Source: Nitrospirales bacterium
Lineage (GTDB): Bacteria; Nitrospirota; Nitrospiria; Nitrospirales; UBA8639
Reading direction: 5' to 3'
Assembly (NCBI GenBank): GCA_041737015.1
Contig: JBGSSO010000381.1
Coordinates: 1,304 to 65,303, forward strand
DNA: 64,000 nucleotides
Part shown: positions 6,151 through 24,395 of the stretch, piece after piece
Layout: each line of letters starts with the position of its first letter
How positions within the stretch are numbered: the stretch's first letter is position 1
The notes under the pieces: model-generated
What the model was told of the DNA's origin: nothing
The model's input: only the letters and a program-made list of their open reading frames with translations
Databases searched by the model: none
Position numbers and translations under genes: made by a program

Positions 6151-8652
6151 CTACTGATTCGGAAGTTCGGCTTGGTTCTGGATGACAAAATAGTCCAATT
6201 CCAATGCGCCGGTATCCGATAGCACCTCCAATTTGATCGTATGGGAACCGGCGGAGAGCGCCTGTGATAATCGCATCTCTTGCGTCACCTCATAATCCCC
6301 CAAGACGCCCCGATCGTCCAACTCGATCGTCGACTGGCGCCGGCCATCAACAGAGATCGTAACCTTATCATCAGCACTTTTGCCCTTTGTATATCTCAGA
6401 CGAATACTCGGGTTCGGAATGTTCTCGGTCAGGTGTAACACATAATTCGCTTCTCCCGTCCCTCGTATCGTGTGTCCCGCGGACGCCGTCTTGCGGGGCG
6501 ATTTCAGCAGGGTACCCGAGCGGTAGTCCTCAGCCTGCTGGGTCACAAGGTAGCCTATTGGTCCCAGCACTTCGATTTTGAAATCCGGGCACGAGGTATT
6601 GTGCCGCGAATAGGTAGGCCGGTCAAAACTCCAGGAATCGCCTGGGATCGTTGTCCATTCCTCATGGTTCGGATCGATCGGGTACGTCTGCACGACACCG
6701 GACGAGGATGCGGCCTGAATACGGGAGATATCGCTATTATCATTGGCCACCCACATGGAACGCATGGTAACAAACGGCGCGGTGAGGGTGTCATACGTCA
6801 CATCCGTCACGCGCACCGTCGTCTTGCCCGGTTCGGCCTGGAGCTGCAATACCGCGGACGATCCGTTTTTATATCGCACCTTGATGGTCATCGTGTGCGG
6901 ATCGATATCCAGCCTCTCGATCGGAATGAACGGAAACAAGGGGTCCTCTGCCGCCGGCCCAATAATCATCGAGGATCCGAAACAGACCCGCTCCTCCCGT
7001 CCCACCGGGGGTTGCGTAATAATCCGCGCGTATCCATTGGCATAGAGCACAAATATTTGCGGGGGGGCATGATCGTCGTCCGTCCGTTTGAGAAGCTGGA
7101 TAAAATCGTGGTCCGGCTCCGATGGTCCACCCACGATATTGACGGCCATCCCCGATTCATAGGGCCACCCGGACACATCCATGACGCGAACCGCCACATC
7201 ACCGTCGTTGTAGATGTCCTTACCGTCGAGATCCGCGATGTCCACAAAACCCGAGGTCACCAAACTCGCATACTGACCGGCGGCACCGGATGCGAGGACC
7301 TGAGGGGTATCCCACTGCGGTGCGGTCATTTTCGTCTTCGCCAGAAATTTTAAGCTCTGATTGTCTGCATCGTAATAGGCAATATTCGGATACCCTCTTG
7401 CCGTCACTCCCAGCGAGGCAAACCGTCCAACATCCCCCACCGCATCAAGAACGATCCCCACCGGCCATTGTGCTACGGCGGCGTCTTTGTAAAGGTATTT
7501 TAAATCCTTATTCGTGGCATCATAATACGCCACATGCAGAGCCCCATCCGGACCAAACGCCGTCGACGTATATTGACCGACATCTCCTGCCGCATCCAAC
7601 ACCAGCGGGATCGACCACCCCTGTTCATCCTGATAGATGTATTTTAAATTTCCGTTGCTCGCATCGTAATACGTGATATGCGGATAATGCCCTTCATACG
7701 CCCCGTTCATTTTCTCTGTCCAACCCTCATAGTACAGGCTCATTGAGGCGTAGGTCCCGACATCCCCGACGGCATCCAGGACCACGGGCGCCGACCATCC
7801 ATGCGTGTCGTCATTCATGACATATTTCAAATCCTTCGTGTCCGCATCGTAATACACCACATGCAGGCTGCCCGTGGGACCTATCGCCATGGCCGCCTGC
7901 TGCCCGACATCGCCGTTTGCGTCCAGGATCGTTGGGGTTGCCCATCCGCCCACTGCATCCGGATTGCTCTTGTAGGTATATTTTAAATTCCCGTGATCCG
8001 CATCGTAATAGACCACGTGATGCCGCCTATCCCGACTAATGCGCAGCGAGACGTATTTTCCGACATCGCCGGTAGCATCGACAATCTCCGGCTCGCGCCA
8101 CTTCCCATTTTCATCCCGGATAATATACATGAGGTTTTGTTTGACCGCGTCATAATAAGCCATAGCCGGTGGCGCGCCTAAGCCCACCCAATACCGGTCA
8201 GTCGGCGGATACGCCAGCGACACATATTGTCCGACATCCGCATTGACCGCATCCGGCGTTTCAATCGGATACCAATAGAAGCCAGGCGACTGCCAGACAA
8301 ATTTCAACTTCTGTTGCGCCGCATCGTAATAGGCAATCTGCGCCGTTGGCCGCATATCCCACGCCCGTTCGCAGTTGGTGAGATCTCCAATACAGAGATC
8401 CTTCTGCCCGCGTTGGAGTGGATAATAGGTCGGAAAGGTCGCAGTAATTTGATAGTCGGACACATAACCGCCATAGATCGGAATATTCACATTGTCCTCT
8501 TCCGCACACTGTGACGGAAAGCTCATATTCTTGGCGTAGCGCACCGTGGTTGCTCCCGCAGCATTAACGCTTTGCAGGCCCACCACCACACACAGCATCC
8601 CGATGATCGCCAGATTCTTTGTCTTACACATACGCCAAGCCATAACCATCAA
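6151..8652 (-). CDS. Secreted protein with 7 beta-propeller repeats and a C-terminal CBM6/35-like module
   Basis: Signal peptide; seven ~48-aa repeats (HxxYYDAxxxxLKY...W...LDAxGDVGxYxS); C-terminal QAEDY...HTIKLE...LELDYF. Confidence 0.8.
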   Translation of the reverse strand: MMVMAWRMCKTKNLAIIGMLCVVVGLQSVNAAGATTVRYAKNMSFPSQCAEEDNVNIPIYGGYVSDYQITATFPTYYPLQRGQKDLCIGDLTNCERAWDMRPTAQIAYYDAAQQKLKFVWQSPGFYWYPIETPDAVNADVGQYVSLAYPPTDRYWVGLGAPPAMAYYDAVKQNLMYIIRDENGKWREPEIVDATGDVGKYVSLRISRDRRHHVVYYDADHGNLKYTYKSNPDAVGGWATPTILDANGDVGQQAAMAIGPTGSLHVVYYDADTKDLKYVMNDDTHGWSAPVVLDAVGDVGTYASMSLYYEGWTEKMNGAYEGHYPHITYYDASNGNLKYIYQDEQGWSIPLVLDAAGDVGQYTSTAFGPDGALHVAYYDATNKDLKYLYKDAAVAQWPVGIVLDAVGDVGRFASLGVTARGYPNIAYYDADNQSLKFLAKTKMTAPQWDTPQVLASGAAGQYASLVTSGFVDIADLDGKDIYNDGDVAVRVMDVSGWPYESGMAVNIVGGPSEPDHDFIQLLKRTDDDHAPPQIFVLYANGYARIITQPPVGREERVCFGSSMIIGPAAEDPLFPFIPIERLDIDPHTMTIKVRYKNGSSAVLQLQAEPGKTTVRVTDVTYDTLTAPFVTMRSMWVANDNSDISRIQAASSSGVVQTYPIDPNHEEWTTIPGDSWSFDRPTYSRHNTSCPDFKIEVLGPIGYLVTQQAEDYRSGTLLKSPRKTASAGHTIRGTGEANYVLHLTENIPNPSIRLRYTKGKSADDKVTISVDGRRQSTIELDDRGVLGDYEVTQEMRLSQALSAGSHTIKLEVLSDTGALELDYFVIQNQAELPNQ

Positions 8653-8903: not shown

Positions 8904-11900
8904 TTACCATTTGGCCATCAACGTGAACTTGTTGCCTGAGAACCAGATACCGTGATCATCCACACGGTAGCTGTCATCGCCCTCAACGGCCACCTGCTTA
9001 GGCTTACCCTCCATGTGGATTGGCCAGCGCACATAAATTTTTCTATCCGTGTCTTTTGGCATATCCACATCCAGATTCAGTCTCTGATCGGTGTCATCCC
9101 ACTTCGCCTGCATCATCAGGTTTCCGAAATGCGTGGGAAAATTCGAAAGCGCAATTCCATCGCCCACAAGCCATTCGCGTGGGGTACCAAACAGCAGATT
9201 CAAGGTTTTGCTTTTATCCTCTTCCATCACGATAAGGCCACGGACAGAATTCACATAACCTGCCCCGACCCACGTATGTGGCATATCACCAATATACACA
9301 CCCTTGCGGCTGTCGGACAGAACCACCTCGGCAAACTCATTCCAATTGGCCGGACGCCTGCCCTTGAACAGAATTTCATGCAGGTCGAAGGCTTCCTTGC
9401 GATACCCTAGGGTTGCAAGAGCCAGAATATTCCGCACCTCGTAAGGCGTATAGGAATAGGGCGTAGAACCGGCATCCCGTTCTTTCACCATCCGGTAATA
9501 GTTCCGGAACGTCCGGTCCAGGATATCTGCAGGCAGAACGTGCCAGGCTTCCGTGGGAAACATGGCAATGGCAATGGAGGTCGGATCAGGAGTACCTTTG
9601 TCCGCATCCACAGGGATATAGTCGAGAGACTTCCAGGCGATAGTCTTTTCAATGGACTCCCTGACGCTTGTGGTGAAATTTTTCGACTCAGTCCTCGCCC
9701 AGTCAGCTAAAAACTTTCGACCCAGGATTTCCGCCATTTCAATCCCGTCCGCCCAACCGCGAATGGCCCAGAAATCATCCCAATAACTGTGCATCGGGGT
9801 AATGAACCCTTCATGACTGATGGACGGAGGTAAGATGCCCTTCAGGCGCTCACCGGCCTCAAGATGTTCATAATATTTCGGATCAAGTGTACGCTCCCGC
9901 AACGTGACAATGTACTTCATCGCCCGGTGCACAGCATCAAAATGCTTTTCCAGGAAATCTCTGTCACCGGTAAAACGATAGTACTCCATGATCGCATAGA
10001 TAAACTGACCCTGGCTGTCCCATTCAATATTCCTCCCCCAGCCGTCATACACCTCACCACTGGTGAAGAGAATGGGAGGCACGAGGCCATCGGGTTCCAC
10101 GCGTTCGGCATACCAATTCAGAAATGCCCTGACCTCCTCGAAAAAACCAAGCCGCATGAGCGTGGCGGAAATGATCGCGCCATCCCGCATCCAGGTCCGG
10201 TTGTAGCTGCGCGCGCCTGGCTGGATGACCACGCCATCGTTGTTCAACAGGATATAGGCTATCTGCGATTTCACGGTATTGACGACGGCCTTGTTGGCAA
10301 GCTCGAATCCCACACGGTTAAGCTTGTCGGTCCAGAAGGTTACATACTCCCGCCGCAACGTCTCGAAGTCCTCGGCAGTTTTCAGATTGGTCAGGGTCTC
10401 ATGCAGGGGAGCCGCAAACACCACCTCCTTGGATTCACCAGGTTTCAATTCAAAGGCATAGGTCCAGGCTGCCGAGAGAAGACCGGTCCCGGTCTGGTCC
10501 TCAATAGATTTGGCATCGCCCTTGCGGTCTGCACCGGCGCCCAGCACGACCCTGCCTCGCAGGTGGTTGGCAATATCACCATGAGCATATGGCGAGGCCA
10601 GGAAACTGTCGGCAGGCGAAAGGGCCAGGTAGGTGTTCTTGTCGTTGATCATCACCAGTTTCCCGGTTTCCCCCACGTACCTGATCGATTTGATAGGCGA
10701 CAATCCGCCATGTTGCCACTTGGGATTGATCTGAGCGGGCCTGACCGTGACGATGAGTTCCCCCTTCCGTACAGTATCGGAGCGATTTTCAAGCGTATGT
10801 CGCACATAGGTCATGCTGGCATCGACAGGCCCGCTGGTAATGGCCTCGGACCTGAAATAAAGTCCATTCCCGGTCTCCCATTTCACGATAGGAACCGGCA
10901 GATACCCGTCCTGCAATTCCTGTCGTATGTTCGCCGCGACGGCAGCCGAATACAGATTGTCACCCTCTTTGACATAAGGCATCAGCATGGGGCCGTCGCG
11001 CCGGGATTCCAGATTGCCATACTCATCGAATAGACTTTCCTCGCTATCCATGGGAAGACCCACCAGAGTCCAGTAGGTCTGATAGCCCCTGACATGTGGG
11101 GGATAATCGCCGAACGGCGCTCTCCGGGCATCAAACTGATAACGAACAAAAGGGGAGAACACTTCCTTGGGACCACGCAACGAAATATCGCTAATCCCAA
11201 AACCGCCCCCGGCTTTCATAGGGTTAGTCAGCACAAGCCTGATGTAGCGGACCTCTGATGGATCATGCGGAACAAAATCGGATTGCCCCTGTGATCCCGC
11301 CGAGACGGAGATGGAGGAGACCTCCTTCCATTCCTTTCCATCCATCGAAATGGCCATATCGACCGAACCGGCATATTGATCTCCCCAGTCGATACGCAAT
11401 CCGGAAATCGTTCTGGACTTGCGCAGGTCCAGAAGCAATTCTGCCCGGTCAACCGCCTCGCTTTTCCAGACGGTATCCTTGCGGCCATCCATCAGAGCCG
11501 GGGTATTCGCACCACCACCCGCGACCACGGAGATATCGACAATGTCGTCAGTCCCTTTGATATCAAATTCCCAGAGGGAATTCCCCCAGCTTGTCGCTCT
11601 CTCCCGTGTATCCAGCCGGACATATCTCGCGGAAACGGGTTGGATGTAAATATCATCCATCTGCCCGTCACCGTCGTCGTTCACATACACCGTCGTCCAC
11701 ACCTTGGCATCGGTCGAAACCAGGAGGTTGTATTTGTTCGAATACCCGTTCTCCCAATGCAGGGTAAAGCCGGTGATCTCAACGACCGTTCCAAGATCGA
11801 CGAGAGCCCATTCCTCATCCTTTGCCTGACTGGACCAGCGGGTCGTCATGTCACTATCCGCCAGGTAACCCGGCAAAAATTCATCGCTCTGAATCGAGGA

Positions 11901-12023
11901 AGCGGTCACCCGCCATGTGTCCTTTGCCGGTATATTGGATGCTGCCAACGCGGCTCTCACGGGCAACATCAGCAGGATCAGGATAGAAAACAATGTCAAC
12001 AAACTGCTCTTGTAAAAGGTCAT
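8904..12023 (-). CDS. Secreted discoidin (F5/8 type C) x2 plus six-hairpin (alpha/alpha)6 glycosidase-like protein, paralogue A
   Basis: Start ATG 12023 overlaps the upstream stop (TGATG); signal peptide; two discoidin modules (DSDMTTRWSS, DGRKDTVWKS); catalytic-domain motifs YNRTWMRDG, GILPPSISHEG, SYWDDFW, YTPYE, IGDMPHTWVG. Confidence 0.85.
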   Translation of the reverse strand: MTFYKSSLLTLFSILILLMLPVRAALAASNIPAKDTWRVTASSIQSDEFLPGYLADSDMTTRWSSQAKDEEWALVDLGTVVEITGFTLHWENGYSNKYNLLVSTDAKVWTTVYVNDDGDGQMDDIYIQPVSARYVRLDTRERATSWGNSLWEFDIKGTDDIVDISVVAGGGANTPALMDGRKDTVWKSEAVDRAELLLDLRKSRTISGLRIDWGDQYAGSVDMAISMDGKEWKEVSSISVSAGSQGQSDFVPHDPSEVRYIRLVLTNPMKAGGGFGISDISLRGPKEVFSPFVRYQFDARRAPFGDYPPHVRGYQTYWTLVGLPMDSEESLFDEYGNLESRRDGPMLMPYVKEGDNLYSAAVAANIRQELQDGYLPVPIVKWETGNGLYFRSEAITSGPVDASMTYVRHTLENRSDTVRKGELIVTVRPAQINPKWQHGGLSPIKSIRYVGETGKLVMINDKNTYLALSPADSFLASPYAHGDIANHLRGRVVLGAGADRKGDAKSIEDQTGTGLLSAAWTYAFELKPGESKEVVFAAPLHETLTNLKTAEDFETLRREYVTFWTDKLNRVGFELANKAVVNTVKSQIAYILLNNDGVVIQPGARSYNRTWMRDGAIISATLMRLGFFEEVRAFLNWYAERVEPDGLVPPILFTSGEVYDGWGRNIEWDSQGQFIYAIMEYYRFTGDRDFLEKHFDAVHRAMKYIVTLRERTLDPKYYEHLEAGERLKGILPPSISHEGFITPMHSYWDDFWAIRGWADGIEMAEILGRKFLADWARTESKNFTTSVRESIEKTIAWKSLDYIPVDADKGTPDPTSIAIAMFPTEAWHVLPADILDRTFRNYYRMVKERDAGSTPYSYTPYEVRNILALATLGYRKEAFDLHEILFKGRRPANWNEFAEVVLSDSRKGVYIGDMPHTWVGAGYVNSVRGLIVMEEDKSKTLNLLFGTPREWLVGDGIALSNFPTHFGNLMMQAKWDDTDQRLNLDVDMPKDTDRKIYVRWPIHMEGKPKQVAVEGDDSYRVDDHGIWFSGNKFTLMAKW

Positions 12024-13147
12024 CAGTGATCTCCCTGACTTGTCGTGAGGTTTCCGGAAGGTTTGTGTCGAAGCTCCTTTCCGTCTTTCCCGAAAAGATG
12101 GCAGTGGTCTGCCGCAATACACACCGTCAGCTTGTCTCCCTTCGCGAAACCGAAATCGCCGGATGCACGACATATCAGCAGGTCATCGGCATCCGGCGTT
12201 TCCAGATAGACATAGGAATGGCTACCCAGTGGTTCCACCAGCTTGATCTCTGTCTCGACGAAGTTGTGCTTACCCCCCGTCGCCAGATGCTCCGGACGAA
12301 TGCCAAGCGTGACCGGAGTATCCGGGGGCAGCTCTCCGGCAACGCCATTCACCTGGATCGTCGTTCCGCTTTGAAGTCGTACCGTTGTGGTATCCCGGCG
12401 GCTCTCGACCACGAACCCGGCCAGGAAATTCATGGCCGGCGAACCGATAAAGCCGGCAACAAAGCGGTTGGTAGGATACTTGTACAGTTCATTGGGGGAA
12501 CCAGTCTGTTCAATGCATCCATCTCTGAGAACCACGATCCGATCCGCCAGTGTCATGGCCTCGACCTGGTCATGCGTGACATAGATCATCGTGGTCTCAA
12601 GCGTCTCGTGCAGTCGTGCAATCTCATGACGCATCTTCACACGAAGAGAGGCATCCAGATTGGAAAGCGGTTCATCAAAGAGGAAGATTCGCGGACGCCT
12701 GACGATCGCCCGGCCAATAGCCGTGCGCTGGCGCTGCCCACCGGAAAGCTCTTTCGGTTTCCGCTCAAGCAGCGCGGTCAGGCCGAGTGTTTCGGCAGCC
12801 GCGCGCACCGCCTGGTCAATTTCTGCCGCAGAAGCTCCGGCAATTTTCATCCCGAAGCTCATGTTGTCATAGACGGTCATATGCGGATACAGCGCATAGG
12901 ACTGGAACACCATCGCAATCCCGCGCTCGGAAGGCGAAAGCCTCGAGACATCGGTCTCACCGATTTTGATGGTTCCCTTATCGATCTCTTCGAGGCCCGC
13001 AATCGTACGCAACAGGGTTGACTTGCCGCAACCCGAAGGGCCGACAATCACCGCAAACTCCCCATCGGGCACATCAAGATCAACCGCAGACAACACGGCC
13101 GTCTTGCCAAAACTCTTGTGAATATTTCGCAGGGTCAGACTAGCCAT
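12023..13147 (-). CDS. Sugar ABC transporter ATP-binding subunit (MalK/UgpC family)
   Basis: Start MASLTLRNIHKSFG at 13147; Walker A GPSGCGKST; signature LSGGQRQR; DEPLSNLD; C-terminal TOBE region. Confidence 0.95.
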   Translation of the reverse strand: MASLTLRNIHKSFGKTAVLSAVDLDVPDGEFAVIVGPSGCGKSTLLRTIAGLEEIDKGTIKIGETDVSRLSPSERGIAMVFQSYALYPHMTVYDNMSFGMKIAGASAAEIDQAVRAAAETLGLTALLERKPKELSGGQRQRTAIGRAIVRRPRIFLFDEPLSNLDASLRVKMRHEIARLHETLETTMIYVTHDQVEAMTLADRIVVLRDGCIEQTGSPNELYKYPTNRFVAGFIGSPAMNFLAGFVVESRRDTTTVRLQSGTTIQVNGVAGELPPDTPVTLGIRPEHLATGGKHNFVETEIKLVEPLGSHSYVYLETPDADDLLICRASGDFGFAKGDKLTVCIAADHCHLFGKDGKELRHKPSGNLTTSQGDH

Positions 13148-14528
13148 GACGCGTATGCACGGAAAGAGGCAGGAAGGGTTCGTCCAGAACCGCACCATTG
13201 GATTCGATAATTTTCGAATAATAACGGGCCGTATCCTTCGGCGTGCGCTCAAGAGTCTCAAAATCGACATGAACAATGCCGAATCGCTTGGCATAACCAA
13301 AGGACCATTCATAGTTGTCCATCAGGGACCAGGCCATATATCCCCGCACATCAACGCCTTTCTCAATCGCGGTCCGGACCGCGCAAAGATGCTGGTTCAG
13401 GTACTGCATCCGCACCGGATCAATGACCCGGCCATGAATCGCTTTCGGCGGATCAAAGAAGGCCGAGCCATTCTCGGTGATATAGAGCGGCATCTCACCA
13501 TAACGACTCTTGAGCCAGAGCAGCGTATCGGAAAGCCCGTCCGGATAGACCTCCCACCCTGTTTCCGTGTAGGTCTTGTGGGGCTGGCGAACGGTCTTGG
13601 CCCTGACAGGCAGACAGTCCGGGCCATCACATGTCACAGCACGCGTGTAATAATTCAGCCCGACAAAATCGATCTTCTGACAAATAAGATCGAAGTCCTT
13701 GGCAGGCCATTCAGGCCAGGCGTCACCGAATATCTCCTTCATTTCCTCCGGATAGGATCCCAGGAGAGCGGGATCAAGAAACTGCCGGTTCATATATGCA
13801 TCGGCGCGATTGGTAGCCGCCAGATCTTTCGGATCATCTGACGCCGGATATTTCGGCTCGATATTCACCACCAGGCCGATTGCATGGGCCCCGACAGCGC
13901 GATAGGCCTGAACGGCCGCACCATGGGCGCGCATCAGATGATGCGCGGCAACCGGCGCTTCATAGTGACAGGAATGTCCAGGGGCCAGTGCCCCATGCAA
14001 ATAGCCGCCATCCGTGACCACCCAGGGTTCATTGAGTGTCGTCCATTTTGTAACCCGGCCATCCAACCGCCGGTACATCGCGTCCCCATAGTCGGCAAAC
14101 CAATGCGCAATGTCCGGATTCAGCCATCCGCCAAGATCGTCCAGCGCTGCCGGTAAATCCCAGTGATACAATGTCAGGAGCGGTTCAATCCCGGCTTCCA
14201 AAAGTCCATCAACAAGTCGTTCGTAGAAATCCAAGCCTTTCTCATTCAGGCTTCCTTTGCCTTCAGGAAAAATACGCGCCCAGGCCACCGAAAACCGATA
14301 GGCTTGCAATCCCAGCTCCTTCATGAGGGCGATATCCTCGCGCCAGCGATGATAATGATCACAGGCGATGTCGCCGGTATCGCCATTCAGGATATTTCCC
14401 GGCGTGTGGGCAAAACGCTGCCAGATGCTCGGGCCTGCACCATCGGCCAGCGGTGCCCCCTCAATCTGGTAGGCCGATGTGGCAGCACCCCAGAGAAACC
14501 CCTCGGGAAACGTCGCGTTTTTTTTCAT
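13140..14528 (-). CDS. GH1 beta-glucosidase (cytoplasmic)
   Basis: FPEGFLWGAATSAYQIEG; acid/base TLNEP; nucleophile ITENG; no signal peptide. Confidence 0.95.
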   Translation of the reverse strand: MKKNATFPEGFLWGAATSAYQIEGAPLADGAGPSIWQRFAHTPGNILNGDTGDIACDHYHRWREDIALMKELGLQAYRFSVAWARIFPEGKGSLNEKGLDFYERLVDGLLEAGIEPLLTLYHWDLPAALDDLGGWLNPDIAHWFADYGDAMYRRLDGRVTKWTTLNEPWVVTDGGYLHGALAPGHSCHYEAPVAAHHLMRAHGAAVQAYRAVGAHAIGLVVNIEPKYPASDDPKDLAATNRADAYMNRQFLDPALLGSYPEEMKEIFGDAWPEWPAKDFDLICQKIDFVGLNYYTRAVTCDGPDCLPVRAKTVRQPHKTYTETGWEVYPDGLSDTLLWLKSRYGEMPLYITENGSAFFDPPKAIHGRVIDPVRMQYLNQHLCAVRTAIEKGVDVRGYMAWSLMDNYEWSFGYAKRFGIVHVDFETLERTPKDTARYYSKIIESNGAVLDEPFLPLSVHTRHG

Positions 14529-14585
14529 CTACCCTTATCCTTTTTGATTAATGGTCTACAACAATCATGTTCGCAGCAGGTGGTT

Positions 14586-17500
14586 TTATGGGGATGCCTC
14601 AAGGACCTCCATAGGGATTCCATTGAATGTCAGCCTGACATCGCCTTTCAGCGAGGGCGGCAGGACATAGCCGCCCGGTGGCATGGTCGATCCTTCCAGA
14701 TCAACACGCACCTGCCCGCCCTCATCACGTGCCGCATAGGACACTTCGCCGTGCGGGGTTCTCAGTCCATGCACCCGGACACCTTCACCCTGTAACCAAT
14801 TTCGCGGCAGACCCGCGCCGATGACCAGTGAGCCGGTTTCTGTATCGGCATAAACAAACAGATCAAGCACCGCCCGGATGAAATCCGATCCCACCCATGT
14901 ATGGGGCATATCACCAATGAAACGCGGTTCCCGTACAAGCCGGCCGATCACCTCGGCCCATTGATTCCACGCTGCCGGGCGGCGATCCCGCATATAAAAA
15001 TCAAGCAGGGCATGGGCACGTTCCAGCTCTCCCAAGCGCACAAACGCGCTCACCTGACGGAATTCATAGGGGGTATAAACATTCCACGCCTTGGTGCCAT
15101 CGCGCCGCGCCACAAACTCGGACCAGGCTTTTTCAAACGTGGCAATCAGCAGCTCCCTCGGCAAGGATGCTGCTGCCCCGGTAGGTGAAAGCGCGATCGT
15201 CGTGGATGTCGGGTCAAAATCTTTTCGGTCCGCGGCCCCCGGCACGTGCCCGAGTTCTTCGCCCAACAATCTGACAGACGCGCTAATATCTGCGGCAAAT
15301 TCGGCGGCATCTGCCCTGATGTCGGCTGCGCGATCTCGGTGCCCAAGTTCCTCAGCAAGAAACGCCGCATCATTCAATCCTTTCAGACCCCAGAAATTAT
15401 CCCAGAAGGAATAGGCAGGACGGTCCAAATAGCCTTCATGGCTCACCGATGGCGGTAACAGACCATAGAAGGCCTTGCGATCACCTTGACGGTTATGCTC
15501 CGTTCGTTCCAACAGCCTCAAATCATCCAGCGCGGCCGCGGCCTTGTCCACATAGGGCCACATGACCTCGGCAAAAGCACGATCCCCGGTGTACCGGTAA
15601 ATATCCACAATCAGAAAAATCAGTTCTCCATGGCTATCATTTTCCACAACCGGATCCGCGCCACGCTTGTCCACACAACAGGGAACTTTGCCACTGGAGA
15701 ACTGGTGCGGTGCGTACCAGCGCGCATACTCAACAGCAGGTTCGTTCTGCCCGAGACGCAGGAAACTTTCACCCATCATCGCTCCGTCACGTATCCACGA
15801 ACGGGCATAGGTTCGTGGCCCCGGACGCAGTGCCGGCCCGTCGCGCGTGATCATCATATGAGCCAACGCGGTTTTCAGACTATTGAGCATCGGCATGGAT
15901 TCAGGCGGGCCCGAAATTTCCACCTGATTGAGGATGTGCCGCCATTCATCGGCTGCCGCCTTTTCACCGGCATCGATGGCCTCGCGGTCCAGGTCGGGCG
16001 TCCGTCCGTCATCAGAACCGAGCACCGTGACGACAGAAACTTCGCGAACCTCACCCGGCTTCAAATCAACATGAAAATACATGGCGCCGGAACCGAAGCC
16101 TCCCGGAGCTACGAGGCTTTGCGAATCCATGCTTGCCCCGGCATCCTGCACATGCGGGAAACCGGCCCGTTCAAATCCCGCGAGCGACACATGGTCCGGC
16201 TTCAGGTCAGGCCACACAGACCAGTTACCATTCACCTGAAACGCTTTGCCATCCCAACCGATCTGCTCAATTTTGCTGGCACCACCCACAAGGTTCAAAA
16301 TCTGCGTGGGCGGATTGACCTGCATGGGGCGGATGGCAAGAGCCAGGGTGAGCGTTCGATGGATCGTGCCGGTATTGACCACACGATATCTGGTCACCAC
16401 ATCACGGGCATTGCCGTCCATCCCGCCTTCTCTTCCAGCGGGAACAGGCGGACGATGTGCACTGATCTCCAATGATAGCCCCTCATGGGTCCGACGCACG
16501 CGCGGCATGGGCAGATAATCATCCCTCAGGCTGTGGTTAAGCCCGGCATCGGCCCAGCCCTGTATGGACCCATTCGCAATCACAAACGGTTCAATCGAGA
16601 ACGCCCCGGGGCCGGGTTCTATGGCGCCATCTTCCGACAGCATGGCCGACCGGCCACCCTGGGGAGCGCCAACAACGGTCCAATAAATTTGTTCACCAAC
16701 GAAGCTGCGCGGATAAGATCCTTTTTTGGTTGCCTGTGCGAGGGACAGCAGAAACTCATTATCACTCTGCCCGAATTCCGGTGGTTCGACCGTCGCGTCT
16801 ATCAAACCAACCTGGCCTCCAGAGGCCGGTTTCACTGAAAGACGAACATAACGCCCGAACGCGTCTGCCATTCGCACATAACCGGTAGTTCCTGGGGGGG
16901 AAGGCCCAATATACAGTTGCCAGTCCGGCACCGTCCACCCTTTTCCATCCTCGGAAAGGGCCATATCAATCGCCTCCGGCATCTGACCTTCGGCCCATCG
17001 TAAGGTCAGACCGCCAAGATCGCGCAAATAGCCCAGATCAAATATCAGGCCCGTGGGTGTGTCGTCAGTCCAGATTGTCTTCGGATTGCCGTCAACGGCG
17101 GCAGGGGCAGGGATATCACCGGCTGTTGCCACGATAGGAGGAACAAAGGCAGGCTGTTCAGGCAAGGTCCGCAGTTCAAGGGTATCGAACTCGACCGTAC
17201 CCTGGTCACCGGTTTCGCCAAGAATCACAAACTCTATTTTGGCGATGGTTTTCAAATTATGGTCCTTTATCGGACCCCATGCAAAGTGTATATCGCTGCG
17301 CCGGATACGGATGGTTGTCCAGTCATCAGGAAACTCGTAATCACGAAACTGCTTCCACCAGACATTCGCGCCACTGTCATCAACCAGCCTCACCTCAAAG
17401 GTCGACTGTGGGGCATGACCCCTGAGCGTGAATGCGATCTCGAAATTGTTTGATAGATCAAGCGGGAGTGCCCGATGTGCATTGGCGGTACCGGCGGTTC

Positions 17501-17741
17501 GGAGTTCATACGACAGTTGAAGCGCATGGCCTCTCACGCCTCCTGTCGTCCTGACAGAGGCCTCACTGTATTCCGTGGCGATTGTCCGCCATTCCCCGAC
17601 ATTCTCAAACCCGTCAATTAACCGAAAATTATTGGCGGCGGTATTCTCACCATACGCGCACACGGCCACTGACAACCAGGCCATCCCGGCAAACAGGCAG
17701 CAGGATGTCCACCATGAATGTCTCATGTATGAACATCTCAT
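14586..17741 (-). CDS. Secreted CIA30/CBM-like plus discoidin plus six-hairpin glycosidase-like protein, paralogue B
   Basis: ATGA overlap with the permease stop; signal peptide; AAVDGNPKTIW discoidin; motifs YARSWIRDG, GLLPPSVSHEG, SFWDNFW, YTPYE, IGDMPHTWVG shared with paralogue A. Confidence 0.85.
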   Translation of the reverse strand: MRCSYMRHSWWTSCCLFAGMAWLSVAVCAYGENTAANNFRLIDGFENVGEWRTIATEYSEASVRTTGGVRGHALQLSYELRTAGTANAHRALPLDLSNNFEIAFTLRGHAPQSTFEVRLVDDSGANVWWKQFRDYEFPDDWTTIRIRRSDIHFAWGPIKDHNLKTIAKIEFVILGETGDQGTVEFDTLELRTLPEQPAFVPPIVATAGDIPAPAAVDGNPKTIWTDDTPTGLIFDLGYLRDLGGLTLRWAEGQMPEAIDMALSEDGKGWTVPDWQLYIGPSPPGTTGYVRMADAFGRYVRLSVKPASGGQVGLIDATVEPPEFGQSDNEFLLSLAQATKKGSYPRSFVGEQIYWTVVGAPQGGRSAMLSEDGAIEPGPGAFSIEPFVIANGSIQGWADAGLNHSLRDDYLPMPRVRRTHEGLSLEISAHRPPVPAGREGGMDGNARDVVTRYRVVNTGTIHRTLTLALAIRPMQVNPPTQILNLVGGASKIEQIGWDGKAFQVNGNWSVWPDLKPDHVSLAGFERAGFPHVQDAGASMDSQSLVAPGGFGSGAMYFHVDLKPGEVREVSVVTVLGSDDGRTPDLDREAIDAGEKAAADEWRHILNQVEISGPPESMPMLNSLKTALAHMMITRDGPALRPGPRTYARSWIRDGAMMGESFLRLGQNEPAVEYARWYAPHQFSSGKVPCCVDKRGADPVVENDSHGELIFLIVDIYRYTGDRAFAEVMWPYVDKAAAALDDLRLLERTEHNRQGDRKAFYGLLPPSVSHEGYLDRPAYSFWDNFWGLKGLNDAAFLAEELGHRDRAADIRADAAEFAADISASVRLLGEELGHVPGAADRKDFDPTSTTIALSPTGAAASLPRELLIATFEKAWSEFVARRDGTKAWNVYTPYEFRQVSAFVRLGELERAHALLDFYMRDRRPAAWNQWAEVIGRLVREPRFIGDMPHTWVGSDFIRAVLDLFVYADTETGSLVIGAGLPRNWLQGEGVRVHGLRTPHGEVSYAARDEGGQVRVDLEGSTMPPGGYVLPPSLKGDVRLTFNGIPMEVLEASP

Positions 17742-18574
17742 CCTTTGACACTTCCCGCAAGGTTTCCGCTCATATAAAAACGCTGAAGCGCCAGAAAAAG
17801 AACCAGGACCGGTGTCACGGTGATCACCGCCCCGGCCATCATCAGCTCAACATCCTGCACATGCTCCCGTGACAAAGATGCCAGCGCAATTGGCAGGGTA
17901 TATTTGTCACTGTCGGTCAGGACGATCAGCGGCCACAAAAAATCATTCCATGCAGCCATAAAGGTAAACAGCCCCAGGGTAATCAGAATGGGTGTCAGTA
18001 ACGGCACCACGACCGACCGGAAAATGCGTAGTTCACTGGCCCCTTCAATCCGTGCCGACTCGATCAGTTCCGTCGGAATGGACAAGGCATACTGCCGTAC
18101 GAGAAATATACCAAATATGCTGGCCACAAAAGGGATCAGCACACCGATCCAGCTATTCACCAGCCCCATCCCTTTCAACATCAGGAACAGCGGAATCATG
18201 GACACCTGGGCCGGAATGACCAGAGCGCTTAGAAGCCCGCGGAACAGCAATTGCCTCCCCTTAAATTCCAATTTGGCAAACGCATAACCGGCAGCCACAT
18301 TAAACGTGAGGGACAACAATGTAGCCGCCGATGCGACAAACAGGGAATTCAAGAAGTTTCTTCCCATGCTGGAATATTCAAAGAGCTTGATATAATTGGC
18401 GAGCGTCGGATGCTCCGGCAACAGCGGCGGCGGAAAATTGCTGGCCTCTCCCGGAGCCATAAAGGACACACTCAGCATCCACAGCAACGGGAACAAAGCA
18501 AACACGGAAAGGAACGACAGCCCAATATTCGTCCCGGATCCTCTCCACATATTTCTCATCGGCTTACCGATCAT
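17738..18574 (-). CDS. Carbohydrate ABC transporter permease (MalG/UgpE type)
   Basis: Six TM segments; EAA-type motif ELIESARIEGAS; WNDFLWPL. Confidence 0.95.
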   Translation of the reverse strand: MIGKPMRNMWRGSGTNIGLSFLSVFALFPLLWMLSVSFMAPGEASNFPPPLLPEHPTLANYIKLFEYSSMGRNFLNSLFVASAATLLSLTFNVAAGYAFAKLEFKGRQLLFRGLLSALVIPAQVSMIPLFLMLKGMGLVNSWIGVLIPFVASIFGIFLVRQYALSIPTELIESARIEGASELRIFRSVVVPLLTPILITLGLFTFMAAWNDFLWPLIVLTDSDKYTLPIALASLSREHVQDVELMMAGAVITVTPVLVLFLALQRFYMSGNLAGSVKG

Positions 18575-18611: not shown

Positions 18612-19079
18612 GTCTCCCATAGTCCGACGCCTGCCGTCTGCCCCAAGAAAGGACGTTCTCATCACAACACATTCTTACTATAGTTATTCCAATTAATTTC
18701 AAAAGTCCTCTTTATCTGTGTGCTATCCTCGCCGCTGCATGACGCCTGCCGGCTGGCCAAAGGGAGGACGCTCTCATTCCCCGGCGGACCTTGTTTGAGT
18801 CCTACGACAAAGCTCAGGACAGGCTCCGCGAGTTGGTCCGCTTTCCCCAAGTTTGCGTCCGTCCCCTCTGATGAGGCCAGACGGGGCGTCCATGGTTTTG
18901 GGTCCTTTTGCCGAAACAAAAGGACCTCGCCAGCCGGGGCGAAACCCGGCAACATAGAAAAACCCCTCGATACGAAAGTTAATTGCACAAGTTCGAAGTG
19001 CGAATTAGCCATCGTTTTTCCTCGCCAACTCCAAGATGGACTCCCGATTATCATTAAACCTGTAAGCCCAGAACCAAAC
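18612..19079 (+). repeat. ~460-bp structured dispersed repeat, copy 1 (MITE/REP-like)
   Basis: Aligns along its length with 21318-21770; internal inverted motif CAATTAATTTC (18690) / GAAAGTTAATTG (18974); hairpins at 18901-18926 and 18933-18950. Confidence 0.9.
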
Positions 19080-19961
19080 TCACACTCCACTCCCATACCG
19101 GCGCATCACCACAAGCTGGCCGATTGCCGCCACAATCATAAATACAAAGAGAATAAAGGCCACGGCGGATGCCGATCCCAGGCTCCACCATTTAAAGCCT
19201 TCTTCATACATCAGATAAATAATGCTGAGCGTACTCTGGACGGGTCCTCCCTGTGTCATCACATAGGGTTCGGCAAAAAGCTGGAAGTATCCGGCCATGG
19301 TTAGCACCCCGACGAGAAACAGTGAGGGAATCAGAGAAGGCAGAGTGACATTGAAAAAACGCTGTCGGGCATTGGCCCCGTCAATCCGCGCAGCCTCATA
19401 CAAATCGCCGGGTATCGCCTGGAGGCCCGCCAGAAGAATGATCATATTGTAGCCAAAATTTTTCCAGACCGCGAAAAGGATGATGGACGGCATGGAAAAA
19501 TGCGGATCACCCAGCCAGTCCACAACGGGGAGACCCAACCAGTCGAGGGAATAATTGATCAAGCCATAACGGGTATGCAGGAGATATCGCCAGATCACCG
19601 CCACGGCCACAATCGTCGTCACGACGGGCGCAAACAGTGCCGTCCTGAAAAATCCTTTGAACCGAACCATCTGCCCATTCAGCAACAGAGCCCCCGCCAG
19701 TGACACGAACACCGAAAGGGGCGCACCGACGAGCACGAAATACAGCGTATTACCCAGGGCCTGCCAGAACAGCGGCCGTTGCAACAGCTCAATATAGTTT
19801 TGGAAACCCACAAACCGGAGGTTGCTAAGGTCGGCCAGAGCATAGATATCAAAGTCCGTCAGACTGAGGGCCAAGGCAGCCAGCACCGGCAGAAAGAAAA
19901 AGACGGCAATGATCGCCAGCGCCGGCCCGGCAAACAGCCAACCTGCCACAGAGGATCTCAC
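19080..19961 (-). CDS. Carbohydrate ABC transporter permease (MalF/UgpA type)
   Basis: FVGFQNY; EAA motif LYEAARIDGAN; multiple TM segments. Confidence 0.95.
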   Translation of the reverse strand: MRSSVAGWLFAGPALAIIAVFFFLPVLAALALSLTDFDIYALADLSNLRFVGFQNYIELLQRPLFWQALGNTLYFVLVGAPLSVFVSLAGALLLNGQMVRFKGFFRTALFAPVVTTIVAVAVIWRYLLHTRYGLINYSLDWLGLPVVDWLGDPHFSMPSIILFAVWKNFGYNMIILLAGLQAIPGDLYEAARIDGANARQRFFNVTLPSLIPSLFLVGVLTMAGYFQLFAEPYVMTQGGPVQSTLSIIYLMYEEGFKWWSLGSASAVAFILFVFMIVAAIGQLVVMRRYGSGV

Positions 19962-21268
19962 GACTCTGCTCCCTCTTCCCGCGCCAGCATCCAGCGACGC
20001 TTTTCAAGAATGCGATCGATCCGGCCATCCAATTCACGCGCCGCCTCGGCAGCCGTCCATTTCTCATGCACCGCACGCTCCGTCACCATGCGCAATTCCT
20101 GCACGATACGTTCCCACTCAGGGATTTTCGGTGCCGGAAGCGCGCGCTCAAGCTGCTCCCTGAAGGCCACAAGATACGGATCTGATTCAAGCCGGTCTCC
20201 GCGCCAGCTTGACCGCCGAGGCGGCAGATTGCCACTGATCTCGTAAAACTGTTGCTGGATGGTTGGACGGGACAGGAATTCAACAAGCCGGAATGCCGCA
20301 TCTTTATGCGCTGAATGTTTAAACACCACCAGGCTGGAACCGCCTGCTGTCGAGGCACCCGGACCCGAAGGCCCCGGCAGGATGGCCGTCATCCAATCAT
20401 CCTGCAGATCGGTAGGCAACCGGCGACGGAATTCACCAATATTCCACGGCCCGGTCAAATAGAAGGTAAAGTGGCCGCGTGCAAATTCATCCCACACATT
20501 GGCAATGTCGGTTTCACTGGAAGGCGGTGCCAGTCCCTTGCGGAAAAAGTCGAGATAAAAATCAAGGGCGGCTACCAGCTCAGGGCTGGAAAAATTGCCA
20601 TACCGGTCACCGTCCCGCAGCAAGGGTACCCCTTGTTGAAGAGCAAGAGACACCTGCATCTCATATTCATTCAGTGGCACGTAAAAGGCAAAGTTGTCTT
20701 TTCCAACATGGTGCTTCACGGCCGTAGCGGCCTGAATCCATTCAGCCCAGTCACGTGGAGGGCGAACAATCCCGGCAGCCCTGAGAATATCCTGCCGGTA
20801 AAAGAGGAGCCGCGTATCCACATACCAGGGCACCCCGTACAGTGTCTCGCCAACCCTGTTCGTCGCCCAAATACCCGGGAAATAATCCTCTTCCTTAATC
20901 ACGGAAGAAGCACCTGCCATCTCGTCCAGCCCGGCAACGGCATCAAGCGCCGCAAACTCCGCTATCCAGGTATTGCCCATCTGGGCCACATCAGGCAGGG
21001 CGTCTCCGGCAAAGGCCGTCAGCAGTTTTTCATGGGCCGAGGTCCAGGGAATCTGCTGGACTACGACACGAACCCCAGGATTCTCGCGTTCAAATTCTTT
21101 GAGCACCTCAGGAACAATCTCCCCTTCACGGCCCATAGCCCAGAACTTAATTTCCAGAATATCATCCTGCCCGCTCCCACTTGTGCATGCGGCAAACATG
21201 GCCGCCAGCAGAATGAAGGCAACTACAAACATCCCCGCTGTTTTTTTTGACGATATTTTTTTGGTCAT
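19958..21268 (-). CDS. Sugar ABC transporter substrate-binding lipoprotein
   Basis: Likely start ATG 21268 or 21298; lipobox FAAC; family-1 SBP motifs (LPDVAQMG, YGVPWYVDTRLLFYR); the ORF-track 5' extension runs into the repeat. Confidence 0.92.
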   Translation of the reverse strand: MTKKISSKKTAGMFVVAFILLAAMFAACTSGSGQDDILEIKFWAMGREGEIVPEVLKEFERENPGVRVVVQQIPWTSAHEKLLTAFAGDALPDVAQMGNTWIAEFAALDAVAGLDEMAGASSVIKEEDYFPGIWATNRVGETLYGVPWYVDTRLLFYRQDILRAAGIVRPPRDWAEWIQAATAVKHHVGKDNFAFYVPLNEYEMQVSLALQQGVPLLRDGDRYGNFSSPELVAALDFYLDFFRKGLAPPSSETDIANVWDEFARGHFTFYLTGPWNIGEFRRRLPTDLQDDWMTAILPGPSGPGASTAGGSSLVVFKHSAHKDAAFRLVEFLSRPTIQQQFYEISGNLPPRRSSWRGDRLESDPYLVAFREQLERALPAPKIPEWERIVQELRMVTERAVHEKWTAAEAARELDGRIDRILEKRRWMLAREEGAES

Positions 21269-21317
21269 ACAGAAATATAGGGGTCCCGGTTCATTCATGT
21301 GTGTCTCTGAAAGATTT

Positions 21318-21770
21318 GTCTCCCCTGCTCCGACGCCTGCCGGCTGGCCCAAGGGAGGGACGCTCTCATCACAACTCGTTTTCCCTAAAGTGATTCCAAT
21401 TAATTTCCAAAGCCATCTTTATCCGTGTGTCCCCCTCGCCGCTGCGGTGACGCCTGCCGGCTGGCCCAAGGGAGGGACGCTCTCATCCGCAGGCGGACCT
21501 TGTTTGAGCCCGGCGAGTTGGGCCGCCCTCCGCAAGTTTGCGTCCGTCCCCTCTTATGAGGCCAGACGGGGCGTCAATGGTTTTGGCCACTTTTGCCGAA
21601 ACAAAAGTGGCTCGACCGCCGGGGCGAAACCCGGCAACACAGAAAATCACGTTGCTACGAAAGTTAATTGCACAAGTGCGATGTGCGAATCAGCCACCGT
21701 TTTTTTTCTAGCCAAATCCAAGATGGACTCCCGATACACATCCTCAAGCTGTAAGGCCAGAAACATACAT
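21318..21770 (+). repeat. ~450-bp structured dispersed repeat, copy 2
   Basis: Direct-orientation homologue of 18612-19079; inverted motif at 21397 and 21659; hairpins at 21586-21611 and 21618-21635. Confidence 0.9.
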
Positions 21771-22435: not shown

Positions 22436-23704
22436 TTATTTTTCCAGCCCCTTTAAATCCTTCAAGAATTTCTCCAATGCTTTCCTATATTGAACTGGAT
22501 TGTCCCATTCACGGAAATCCCCAATTGTTTTTTCCACCACATCCGCTTTGCGGTAATGATTCCACCTTTGTAAAACGAAATCATCTATTCGAATAGGAAC
22601 TAAAACATCAGGGTCATTGCCAGTTCTTCTATGGGAATCTTCCTTCTGAAGAGCCCGTTCAATTTCACGAATCACCGCAGGTGAGTTAAGAGATTTTTCG
22701 CTACAAATCACAATCAGCTTATCGTAAACTCGAATAGCTTCATCAATTTCTTTCATTAGGGGACGCCCAATAGTCGCATCTTCTTTCCATCGCCAACATC
22801 GAACCCCTTCCCCTTGCAGATCATTGTACAAGCGTTGTGCAAATAGATCATCGGACTCGGAAAAGGAAATAAAACACTCATAGAACTGGACAGGATTTTC
22901 CTGTGAGGCTCGTATCAGGGAAGGGAGAAACTCAATGAGAACTTCAGGAAGTCCGCAACCAAGTAAAAAAGTTAGAGGTAAAGAGCCAGACTTTTGAAGA
23001 GTGCGGTGATCGATTGTACACGGCCCCAAAAATCGGCAATTAGAAAGCTTCGCATCCTTTAAATTAGCACCACCAAAAATAACTTCTTTTAAGGTAGATT
23101 TTTCAAGGTCAGCCTCGCTCAAATTGACCCCACAAAAATTTACATCGACAAGCATTGTTTGTCTCAGATCGGCACGATAAAGATTTCCCCCAGAAAAGTC
23201 TGCATTATGAAAGTCCGCATGAGAAAGGTTAGCTCCTGAAAAATTTGCTCTACGAAAGCGTCCCTGACCACCGTTCACCCCTTGCAAATTGGCTTGAGAT
23301 AGGTTGGCATCAAATAAAACCGTTAAACTCAAATTTGCGTTAGTTAAATCTGATTCCTGAAGTTCTGTGTTGCCAAAATTGGCCAAGGGAAGACGTGCTC
23401 CGGATAGTATAGAATTACGGAGGAGTGATCCAGCAACGTCTGTCTCCTGAAGATCTGCCCCAGCAAGATTTGCTCCACAGAGACGCACCACAGAAAGATC
23501 GTATCCACGAAGATTTCGCTGAGACAGGTTTGCTTCGGTTAAATCAGGGATGGAGGAATCTGTTTCAATGAAATTTAGGCGTCCACCATCTGTCCAAGAG
23601 GGGTCGTTCATGCTTTCGGGCCAACGGATAGGATGATCCTTCCTCCACGCATTCCAGGCTTCCCTTCCCTGATCTAAAATCTTTAGATGCTCCGCATTAG
23701 CCAC
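22436..23704 (-). CDS. Pentapeptide-repeat plus C-terminal TIR-domain protein
   Basis: GTG start at 23704 with GAGG RBS; A(N/D)Lxx repeats; TIR motifs CFISFS, DLQxxGVRCW, DKLIVICS, REIERAL. Confidence 0.9.
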   Translation of the reverse strand: MANAEHLKILDQGREAWNAWRKDHPIRWPESMNDPSWTDGGRLNFIETDSSIPDLTEANLSQRNLRGYDLSVVRLCGANLAGADLQETDVAGSLLRNSILSGARLPLANFGNTELQESDLTNANLSLTVLFDANLSQANLQGVNGGQGRFRRANFSGANLSHADFHNADFSGGNLYRADLRQTMLVDVNFCGVNLSEADLEKSTLKEVIFGGANLKDAKLSNCRFLGPCTIDHRTLQKSGSLPLTFLLGCGLPEVLIEFLPSLIRASQENPVQFYECFISFSESDDLFAQRLYNDLQGEGVRCWRWKEDATIGRPLMKEIDEAIRVYDKLIVICSEKSLNSPAVIREIERALQKEDSHRRTGNDPDVLVPIRIDDFVLQRWNHYRKADVVEKTIGDFREWDNPVQYRKALEKFLKDLKGLEK

Positions 23705-24395
23705 GAATTTTCCCTCATGAAGTGCAAGATTTCGTTTGTGGGATACCAATAGTCACCATACTAAATTGGATCAATAAATGGAATGCGTGGCAATAACAAT
23801 AAATTTAAGAGAAGGATCTCCCTAAATACTCTTCACAGTTTTCATTCATCAAGTTTGTATAGTCATTTTTGCCATTGAAAGAAATCAGATCTGGTTATCC
23901 CACATGAGCCACCTACACTCTCGCTATGGCTCATCCGTTGCGGCTTGAATCTCTGGGGCCATCTATCTCATGTCACATTTTGGGGCAATGCTCGACAGGA
24001 CATCCTCCCCGATGATCGAAACCGCACCCACTTTCCTTGAACTGCTGGGCAAACGGTGAGAGACTGATGGACTTCTTTTTCCAAGGGGTAGATAGTCCCA
24101 TCCAAAATTCACTACCAATCCACGCATTGGCATTCGAACGTGAATGCCCGGGTGCAGAGTCTTTCCTGGGTTACACCTTCGAAAGCCTTTTTTTGGGAAA
24201 CAACCCATGATGCTTCCTTCACGCTAAAGAAGTGTAAGGCTCGAGGGGTCTGTCAACACGGAAGCACGCACCTCTGGCCTTTATCACAAAAATTGTGAAA
24301 ATCCCATGATCATTATTGCGGCCTTCATCGGTGCATTGGCGGGAGAAAACAGGAATAGAATAAGGCCAAATACTGGATGAGAGAACCGTGAGGAA

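Follow-up and report, generated by a model that had tools for sequence, protein, structure and literature searches.

The genome of a marine-type Nitrospira (Nitrospirales, lineage UBA8639; assembly GCA_041737015.1) encodes two paralogous exported enzymes, designated A and B, within an operon for an ATP-binding cassette (ABC) importer. The operon lies in a stretch of 64,000 nucleotides of contig JBGSSO010000381.1 (positions 1,304 to 65,303), referred to below as the window. Profile comparisons and structural models suggest that A and B represent a separate six-hairpin family with a remote relationship to glycoside hydrolase (GH) family GH15 and an overall shape most like that of GH94. Gene neighbors in six phyla indicate that this family processes β-1,2-glucans, bacterial polysaccharides that are factors of symbiosis, virulence, and osmoprotection. 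On balance, we lean toward the view that A and B are exported inverting hydrolases trimming β-1,2-glucans before uptake.

The interval 8904–17741 of the window had been described preliminarily as a pair of glycosidase paralogs. Both open reading frames are present there (P0001, listed as 8904–12173, and P0002), but genes for a GH1 β-glucosidase and an ABC ATPase sit between them, and the four minus-strand genes, all in the same direction, are part of a longer operon. Translational coupling through start/stop overlaps ties both enzymes into it. The start of enzyme B overlaps the stop of the second permease gene (ATGA, 17738–17741), and the ATG of enzyme A at 12023 shares bases with the TGA that ends the preceding ATPase gene (TGATG). 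Because of this overlap, the GGAG located 7 nt upstream, and the length of the orthologs (1,039 amino acids), enzyme A probably starts at 12023, and the longer reading frame from 12173 is probably not used. The genes and domains of the operon, in the direction of transcription, are as follows.

19958–21352, minus strand: solute-binding protein of the ABC importer (Pfam SBP_bac_1; matches to PDB entries 3UOR and 5YSB); translation probably begins farther downstream than at the TTG listed
19080–19961, minus strand: ABC permease 1 (BPD_transp_1), 64%–73% identical to permeases of the cassettes in loci L129–L131 (see below)
17738–18574, minus strand: ABC permease 2 (BPD_transp_1)
14586–17741, minus strand: enzyme B (P0002, 1,051 amino acids), consisting of a signal peptide, a CIA30/CBM11-like module, an F5/8-type-C module, and a catalytic region
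about 17157–17639, minus strand: CIA30/CBM11-like module of enzyme B (weak profile signals)
16803–17111, minus strand: F5/8-type-C module of enzyme B (Pfam)
14589–16757, minus strand: catalytic region of enzyme B
13140–14528, minus strand: cytoplasmic GH1 β-glucosidase without a signal peptide (Glyco_hydro_1, E 1e-161)
12023–13147, minus strand: ABC ATPase of the MalK/UgpC type (ABC_tran, OB_MalK, TOBE_2), the start likely being Met at 13147
8904–12023, minus strand: enzyme A (P0001 from Met51, 1,039 amino acids), consisting of a signal peptide, two F5/8-type-C modules, and a catalytic region
11568–11909 and 11175–11528, minus strand: F5/8-type-C (CBM32-like) modules of enzyme A (Pfam)
8907–11168, minus strand: catalytic region of enzyme A, with the predicted (α/α)6 barrel at about 9231–10376
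6151–8652, minus strand: exported repeat protein of 833 amino acids with a weak CBM35-like C-terminus (CBM_35_2, E 6e-4)

Enzymes A and B share 30% identity over 847 residues (E 2e-98), which bears out the paralogy proposed in the preliminary description, and all seven motifs listed there were found in both proteins. Their positions in A and B, numbered in the listed reading frames, are 663 and 651 for RDGA, 786 and 767 for SHEG, 798 and 780 for WD(D/N)FW, 863 and 843 for DPTS, 908 and 889 for YTPYE, 948 and 929 for AEV, and 962 and 943 for GDMPHTW. Signal peptides start A, B, and distant B-type homologs; both enzymes are predicted to be Sec-exported, with a probable periplasmic location. The discoidin counts given earlier agree with Pfam, which places two F5/8-type-C domains in A and one in B, and the earlier "CIA30/CBM-like" label for the first module of B is a fair one, although the signals are weak (CIA30, E 0.014; CBM11, E 0.11). 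This first module is conserved in distant B-type homologs. The first module of A best matched, among PDB entries, the discoidin domains of carbohydrate-binding module (CBM) family CBM32 in a Paenibacillus glucanase/chitosanase (E 2e-20). AlphaFold2 models, based on alignments of 47 and 31 sequences, were confident: the predicted local distance difference test (pLDDT) score was 90.7 for full-length A and 93.1 for its catalytic region, and the predicted template-modeling (pTM) score was 0.87 and 0.93, respectively. They predict binding modules followed by a β-sandwich, an (α/α)6 barrel, and a C-terminal β-domain, in line with the barrel and N-terminal β-sandwich anticipated earlier. Acidic residues are conserved among 31–47 diverse family members. 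The enzyme B ortholog of a close relative (G021:C2:992413–994459) is split into overlapping frames of 831 and 310 amino acids by a frameshift or a sequencing error.

Family status was judged against Pfam, NCBIfam, PDB, and the literature. At the family level, nothing in Pfam, NCBIfam, or the PDB sequences matched the catalytic region, and no solved structure lay above a template-modeling (TM) score of 0.62 at 12% identity, the value of the best Foldseek match. When A, B, and a profile of 47 sequences were compared with the PDB sequences, the only matches were of the CBM32 type and fell in the N-terminal modules. The earlier statement that the family could not be assigned was thus essentially right, but the enzymes are not unrelated to known families, since remote homology to GH15 and a partial match to GDE_C were detected.

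Kinship with GH15 at the clan level (clan GH-L) was found by hhalign profile comparison against a GH15 alignment built from the same genome and its relatives. The probability was 95%–96% (E 2e-9), and the match was strongest over about 140 columns around W-x-R-D-G-A. Both families have an N-terminal β-sandwich followed by an (α/α)6 barrel, their W-x-R-D-(G/A)-A helix motifs and the Glu preceding the G-x-x-P-(H/Q) loop align, and an inverting mechanism is probable for the new family. Curated hidden Markov models did not place A in GH15: the PF00723 score was 15 bits vs a cut-off of 22, and the TIGR01577 (NCBIfam) score was 47 vs 820. PF00723 matched 9 of 31 family members at E < 0.1 (best, 8e-4). 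The GH15 acid motif W-E-E is absent from the family, and the acid region does not align. A weak colinear hhalign segment (6.7% alone) aligns the AEV motif of A such that Glu949 falls no more than two columns from Y-A-E-E, the base motif of GH15, and sets G-D-M-P-H beside G-N-F-P-Q of GH15; allowing a two-residue shift, Glu949 can be read as the equivalent of the GH15 base Glu. The new family differs from GH15 in its low identity (10%–12%), the additional CBM32 and CBM11-like modules, the C-terminal β-domain, and a genomic context of β-1,2-glucan rather than α-glucan.

Relationships to other families were more distant or partial. The Pfam model GDE_C (GH133) scored 24–25 bits vs a cut-off of 21, and 14 of 31 members matched it, but the match spanned model positions 13–115 of 367 (28%), only part of the domain. 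Since 1,2-β-oligoglucan phosphorylase (SOGP) also matches GDE_C, this model appears to pick up generic six-hairpin features. Sub-threshold Pfam matches were obtained for GH78, GH15, GH63-like, GH95, and GH125 models. In Foldseek comparisons, GH94 phosphorylases (TM 0.58–0.63) were the closest, followed by the GH15 dextran dextrinase and glucoamylase (TM 0.55–0.61) and GH116 (about 0.50); all these neighbors are 10%–14% identical and indicate relatedness at the clan level only. GH94 (cellobiose phosphorylase, SOGP, and the C-terminal domain of cyclic β-1,2-glucan synthase, Cgs) shares with the new family a four-part layout and the β-1,2-glucan metabolic neighborhood. On the contrary, no PF17167 match was found, identity was 12%, hhalign against an alignment of seven SOGPs gave a probability of 7%, and phosphorolysis is unlikely for A and B because they are exported. 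The structures 5GZK, 6IMU, 8WY1, 8XUJ, 8XUK, and 8XUL, representing GH144, GH162, GH189, GH192, GH193, and GH194, were absent from the PDB sequence matches and their founders from the top 50 fold matches, and there was no match to PF10091. GH144, GH162, and GH192–194 share with the new family the presumed substrate and loci, but they are single-domain (α/α)6 proteins of about 430–540 amino acids, as judged from PDB chain lengths and PMC12102758.

The family is large: clustered at 50% identity, it counts 2,309 representatives below an E value of 1e-3 and 748 below 1e-30. It extends over at least eight phyla, with members in Nitrospirota, Pseudomonadota (many of them Xanthomonadales), Myxococcota, Bacteroidota, Verrucomicrobiota, Kiritimatiellota, Lentisphaerota, Omnitrophota, and Auribacterota. 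Names in the source records are generic, mostly "discoidin domain-containing protein," and no characterized member was found in the searchable literature. A maximum likelihood tree of 61 catalytic regions contained three groups, namely the A type and a third type, each with a support of 100, and the B type with a Shimodaira-Hasegawa-like approximate likelihood ratio test value of 81 (96 for its 21-row core). A and B are thus placed by phylogeny in two ancient subfamilies. Pairs of A and B occur in Nitrospirales and Lysobacteraceae, and pairs of A-type and third-type proteins in Kiritimatiellae and Verrucomicrobiota. None of the three groups departs from the candidate catalytic residues, so that both members of the pair, which is old, appear to be active. 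B-type orthologs always follow permease 2, and the B type is a fixed component of the ABC cassette. The co-occurrence of two ancient subfamilies in Nitrospirales and Lysobacteraceae lends indirect support to the earlier idea of a complementary pair; because these subfamilies carry different binding modules, A and B probably differ in the mode of attack or the preferred form of glucan.

The genomic context, which the preliminary description did not cover, points to β-1,2-glucan. The family co-localizes or co-occurs with SOGP, SGL, and Sopn-binding protein genes, and this association with β-1,2-glucan genes recurred in six phyla and three subfamilies. SOGP genes adjoined family members or lay within 10 kb of them in Polaribacter, Snuella, a second Nitrospira species, and locus L131, as well as, in a survey of 80 genome loci, in Kiritimatiellae, two Verrucomicrobiota, and a Polyangiales metagenome-assembled genome (MAG). 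In Polaribacter and Snuella, the A-type gene directly follows that of a GH94 SOGP (SOGP_N, SOGP_2nd, and SOGP_4th domains) and directly precedes the gene of a PgSGL3-like protein (GH194 endo-β-1,2-glucanase; 8XUK, E 1e-56), with a GH3 gene nearby. Weaker PgSGL3-like homologs (27%–33% identity) are encoded in L027, L063/L070, and L075. Solilutibacter (Lysobacteraceae) has an almost full copy of the Nitrospira cassette, in which the GH1/ATPase and A-type genes are divergent, together with GH194-like and GH3 genes. Three loci carry B-type homologs 42%–48% identical to B, next to transporter proteins 48%–73% identical to those of the window, in the following gene orders.

L129: TonB-dependent receptor, GH3, GH1, LacI, GH144, solute-binding protein, permease, permease, B-type enzyme, ATPase
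L130: GH144, solute-binding protein, permease, permease, B-type enzyme
L131: solute-binding protein, permease, permease, B-type enzyme, SOGP

In both L129 and L130, a GH144 gene thus immediately precedes the orthologous cassette. In the second species of the same genus, a third-type member lies beside a second, fragmented SOGP paralog. This paralog (L125, G003:C55, 5668–9048, minus strand) is split over three frames, being a pseudogene or the result of assembly frameshifts.

The same association was seen at the level of genomes. Among 61 Nitrospirales genomes, the family and SOGP were both present in 10 and both absent from 46, whereas 4 contained only the family and 1 contained only SOGP; SOGP was unlinked to the family genes, and co-occurrence was significant overall (Fisher p = 1e-7) and within the genus (3e-5). 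The link of the family to Cgs was weaker (p = 0.02). The genome studied here encodes a 1,162-amino acid SOGP (contig C95, L093:3479–6967, minus strand) and a 2,917-amino acid Cgs (G000 contig C193, L092:2847–11600), both unlinked to the window; the synthase combines a pair of GH94 supersandwich domains with a catalytic domain of GH94 and a "Glycoamylase" domain that is GH144/189-like. No stand-alone GH144 was found in this genome. Recycling of the cell's own periplasmic cyclic glucan was considered as the role of the operon and down-weighted, since 8 of the 14 family-bearing relatives lack Cgs and five Cgs-encoding genomes of other genera lack the family.

The binding protein of the importer also points to β-1,2-glucan. 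The best PDB match of the binding protein, 3UOR of X. citri (E 2e-144), is uncharacterized, and the literature on XAC2310 or 3UOR included no paper characterizing the enzyme family. The closest characterized PDB homolog of the binding protein is Lin1841 (5YSB), a sophoro-oligosaccharide binder of Listeria (E 3e-66). The GH1 protein matched PDB β-glucosidases with E values down to 1e-217, including the sophorose-preferring Td2F2 (1e-130).

In the proposed pathway, A and B would bind the glucan via the CBM32-like and CBM11-like modules and hydrolyze β-1,2-glucan chains to short oligosaccharides, which the two permeases would import with the Lin1841-type binding protein. The cytoplasmic GH1 enzyme and the unlinked SOGP would then complete the breakdown to glucose and glucose 1-phosphate. 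By analogy with the distant relatives, the reaction is expected to be inverting. The GH15 alignment and motif spacing suggest Glu788 (SHEG) or Asp799 (WDD) of enzyme A, numbered in the listed reading frame, as the candidate acid and Glu949 (AEV) as the candidate base. Exo action seems likelier than endo action because families with a β-sandwich plus a barrel are mostly exo-acting and dedicated GH144 and GH194 endo-glucanases co-occur in other lineages; endo action is possible in Nitrospirales, since no other candidate depolymerase was found at their loci.

Several points weigh against the trimming of β-1,2-glucans by A and B. The families to which any sequence similarity was detected (GH15, GDE_C, GH78, GH63, GH95, and GH125) are described without exception as acting on axial (α-D or α-L) bonds and not on β-glucosides. 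The substrate assignment is guilt by association, and the phyletic co-occurrence statistics ignore shared ancestry. An endo-β-1,2-glucanase is already present at many loci, and the role of the family may thus be something other than the cleavage of β-1,2 bonds. In Xanthomonadales, the majority of copies are orphans whose gene contexts say little, as in Stenotrophomonas (an EAL protein, short-chain dehydrogenases, an amino acid ABC transporter, and luciferase-like oxygenases), and the same applies to some copies of Verrucomicrobia, in which two contexts examined were uninformative. Finally, D193 and Q197 of Lin1841, which contact glucose unit C (PMC13731917), are not conserved in the binding protein of the window, these two being the only ligand residues compared.

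A bolder version of the β-1,2-glucan assignment, which we regard as speculative and rather unlikely, is that this new GH family performs a step of β-1,2-glucan catabolism for which no enzyme is known. It might open or trim periplasmic glucans that are branched, cyclic, or closed by an α-1,6 bond, each of the two subfamilies being specialized for different forms.

The main alternative, in our estimate quite unlikely, is that the family cleaves linkages other than β-1,2 that decorate or close natural β-1,2-glucans, such as the single α-1,6 bond of α-1,6-cyclized glucans or the β-1,6 branches of the osmoregulated periplasmic glucan (OPG) type, clearing the way for endo-glucanases, β-glucosidases, and SOGP. 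Such a role would fit the fact that profile comparison shows kinship only with inverting, α-glucoside-specific families (GH15 and the GDE type), and the presence of bona fide endo-β-1,2-glucanases at the same loci suggests a non-redundant job. The family is also abundant in Xanthomonadales, known makers of α-1,6-cyclized β-1,2-glucans (PMC11228985). However, the Nitrospirales loci offer no other depolymerase, the Nitrospirales synthase is of the Cgs type (GH94 and GH189-like domains) producing all-β rings, and the nearest folds are the β-glucoside-active GH94 and GH116, anomeric specificity not being readable at 10%–14% identity.

The β-1,2 markers could also reflect general β-glucan loci, the true substrate being a β-1,3-, β-1,6-, or mixed-linkage glucan. 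GH1 and GH3 β-glucosidases are generic, flavobacterial loci additionally encode CBM4_9, Laminin_G, and CBM6/35 proteins, and the resemblance of the first CBM32 module of A to Paenibacillus glucanase/chitosanase modules points the same way. We find this distinctly improbable, because SOGP, GH144, and GH194 are β-1,2-glucan-specific as characterized so far (PMC3960220, PMC12102758), Pfam annotation of the gene-called contigs included no GH16, GH17, GH30, or GH5 domain, and the β-1,2 association spans six phyla and three subfamilies.

Transglycosylation or cyclization, that is, remodeling of periplasmic β-1,2-glucans as by GH189 and GH186 members, has precedents in β-1,2-glucan biology (PMC10834661, PMC11228985) and would suit the GH94-like fold (Cgs GH94 domain, TM 0.59) of enzymes from a genome that itself makes cyclic glucan; it is very doubtful, since the genes are located in import and catabolic operons and not with Cgs, which 8 of 14 family-bearing genomes lack, and phosphorolysis is implausible outside the cytoplasm. 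Just as improbable is a divergent GH15 with classical α-glucan activity (glucoamylase, glucodextranase, or trehalase): the hhalign match over the WxRD region, the TIGR01577 score, and the "GH15" label of the Nitrospira marina ortholog (PMC8115632) agree with it, but both curated models scored below their cut-offs, the W-E-E motif is missing, the genome already contains three ordinary GH15 genes, and no α-glucan genes were found at any locus examined.

Other features of the region were noted around the operon. A gap of 250 nt separates enzyme A from the downstream gene of the 833-amino acid protein, which contains YYDA...LKY...DVG repeats and lacks a PDB sequence match or a solid Pfam match; copies 75%–88% identical to it are encoded directly downstream of enzyme A in loci L012–L023 of Nitrospirales. 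A repeat of about 400 nt occurs between the permease genes (18613–19019) and upstream of the binding-protein gene (21319–21704), with collinear blocks 80%–87% identical and a weaker end block of 63%. Because the permease genes abut in three of the four Nitrospirales loci containing both (L016, L018, and L019; L021 has a gap of about 500 nt), the copy between them looks like an insertion inside the operon. The operon in L018, assigned to "Hyphomicrobiaceae bacterium," has nearly the same tblastn identities and coordinates as in L019, a Nitrospirales MAG, and the L018 contig is probably mis-binned. A pentapeptide-repeat protein that carries a TIR domain at its C-terminus (22436–23749, minus strand) is encoded close to the upstream end of the operon, where the GC content is lower (0.446). 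Farther upstream, a 771-amino acid protein (26563–28878, minus strand) has a phosphofructokinase domain in its C-terminal half and no Pfam match in its N-terminal 420 residues.

Bayer et al. (2021, PMC8115632) reported the orthologous operon of N. marina under the name "putative carbohydrate degradation operon" and listed a "secreted GH15" among its products; orthologs of A, GH1 (BglA), and MalK were detected in all six proteomes (PMC8115632, Data Set 1). The "carbohydrate-binding protein" of that operon probably corresponds to the 833-amino acid repeat protein. That study proposed no substrate, made no link to β-1,2-glucan, SOGP, or Cgs, and did not recognize the "GH15" as a distinct family with two paralogs. 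No paper in the searchable literature tied this family, or Nitrospira, to β-1,2-glucan. The link of the enzyme pair to this substrate, strong and open to testing, is the new element here.

Characterization of β-1,2-glucan-degrading enzymes gave rise to families GH144, GH162, GH186, GH189, and GH192–194 (PMC12102758, PMC10514313, PMC10834661). The family of A and B, large, without a characterized member or solved structure, and wired into β-1,2-glucan loci, is a candidate for a further GH family and for a missing step of the pathway. For the "carbohydrate operon" of marine Nitrospira, the hypothesis is that these nitrifiers take up β-1,2-gluco-oligosaccharides, some of them also making cyclic β-1,2-glucan, and it can be tested with substrates and assays in current use. 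If the enzymes do catalyze a step for which none is known, they would be the first relatives of the α-specific GH15 lineage in β-1,2-glucan metabolism, and chemolithoautotrophic nitrite oxidizers would gain a dedicated route to scavenge or recycle β-1,2-glucans.

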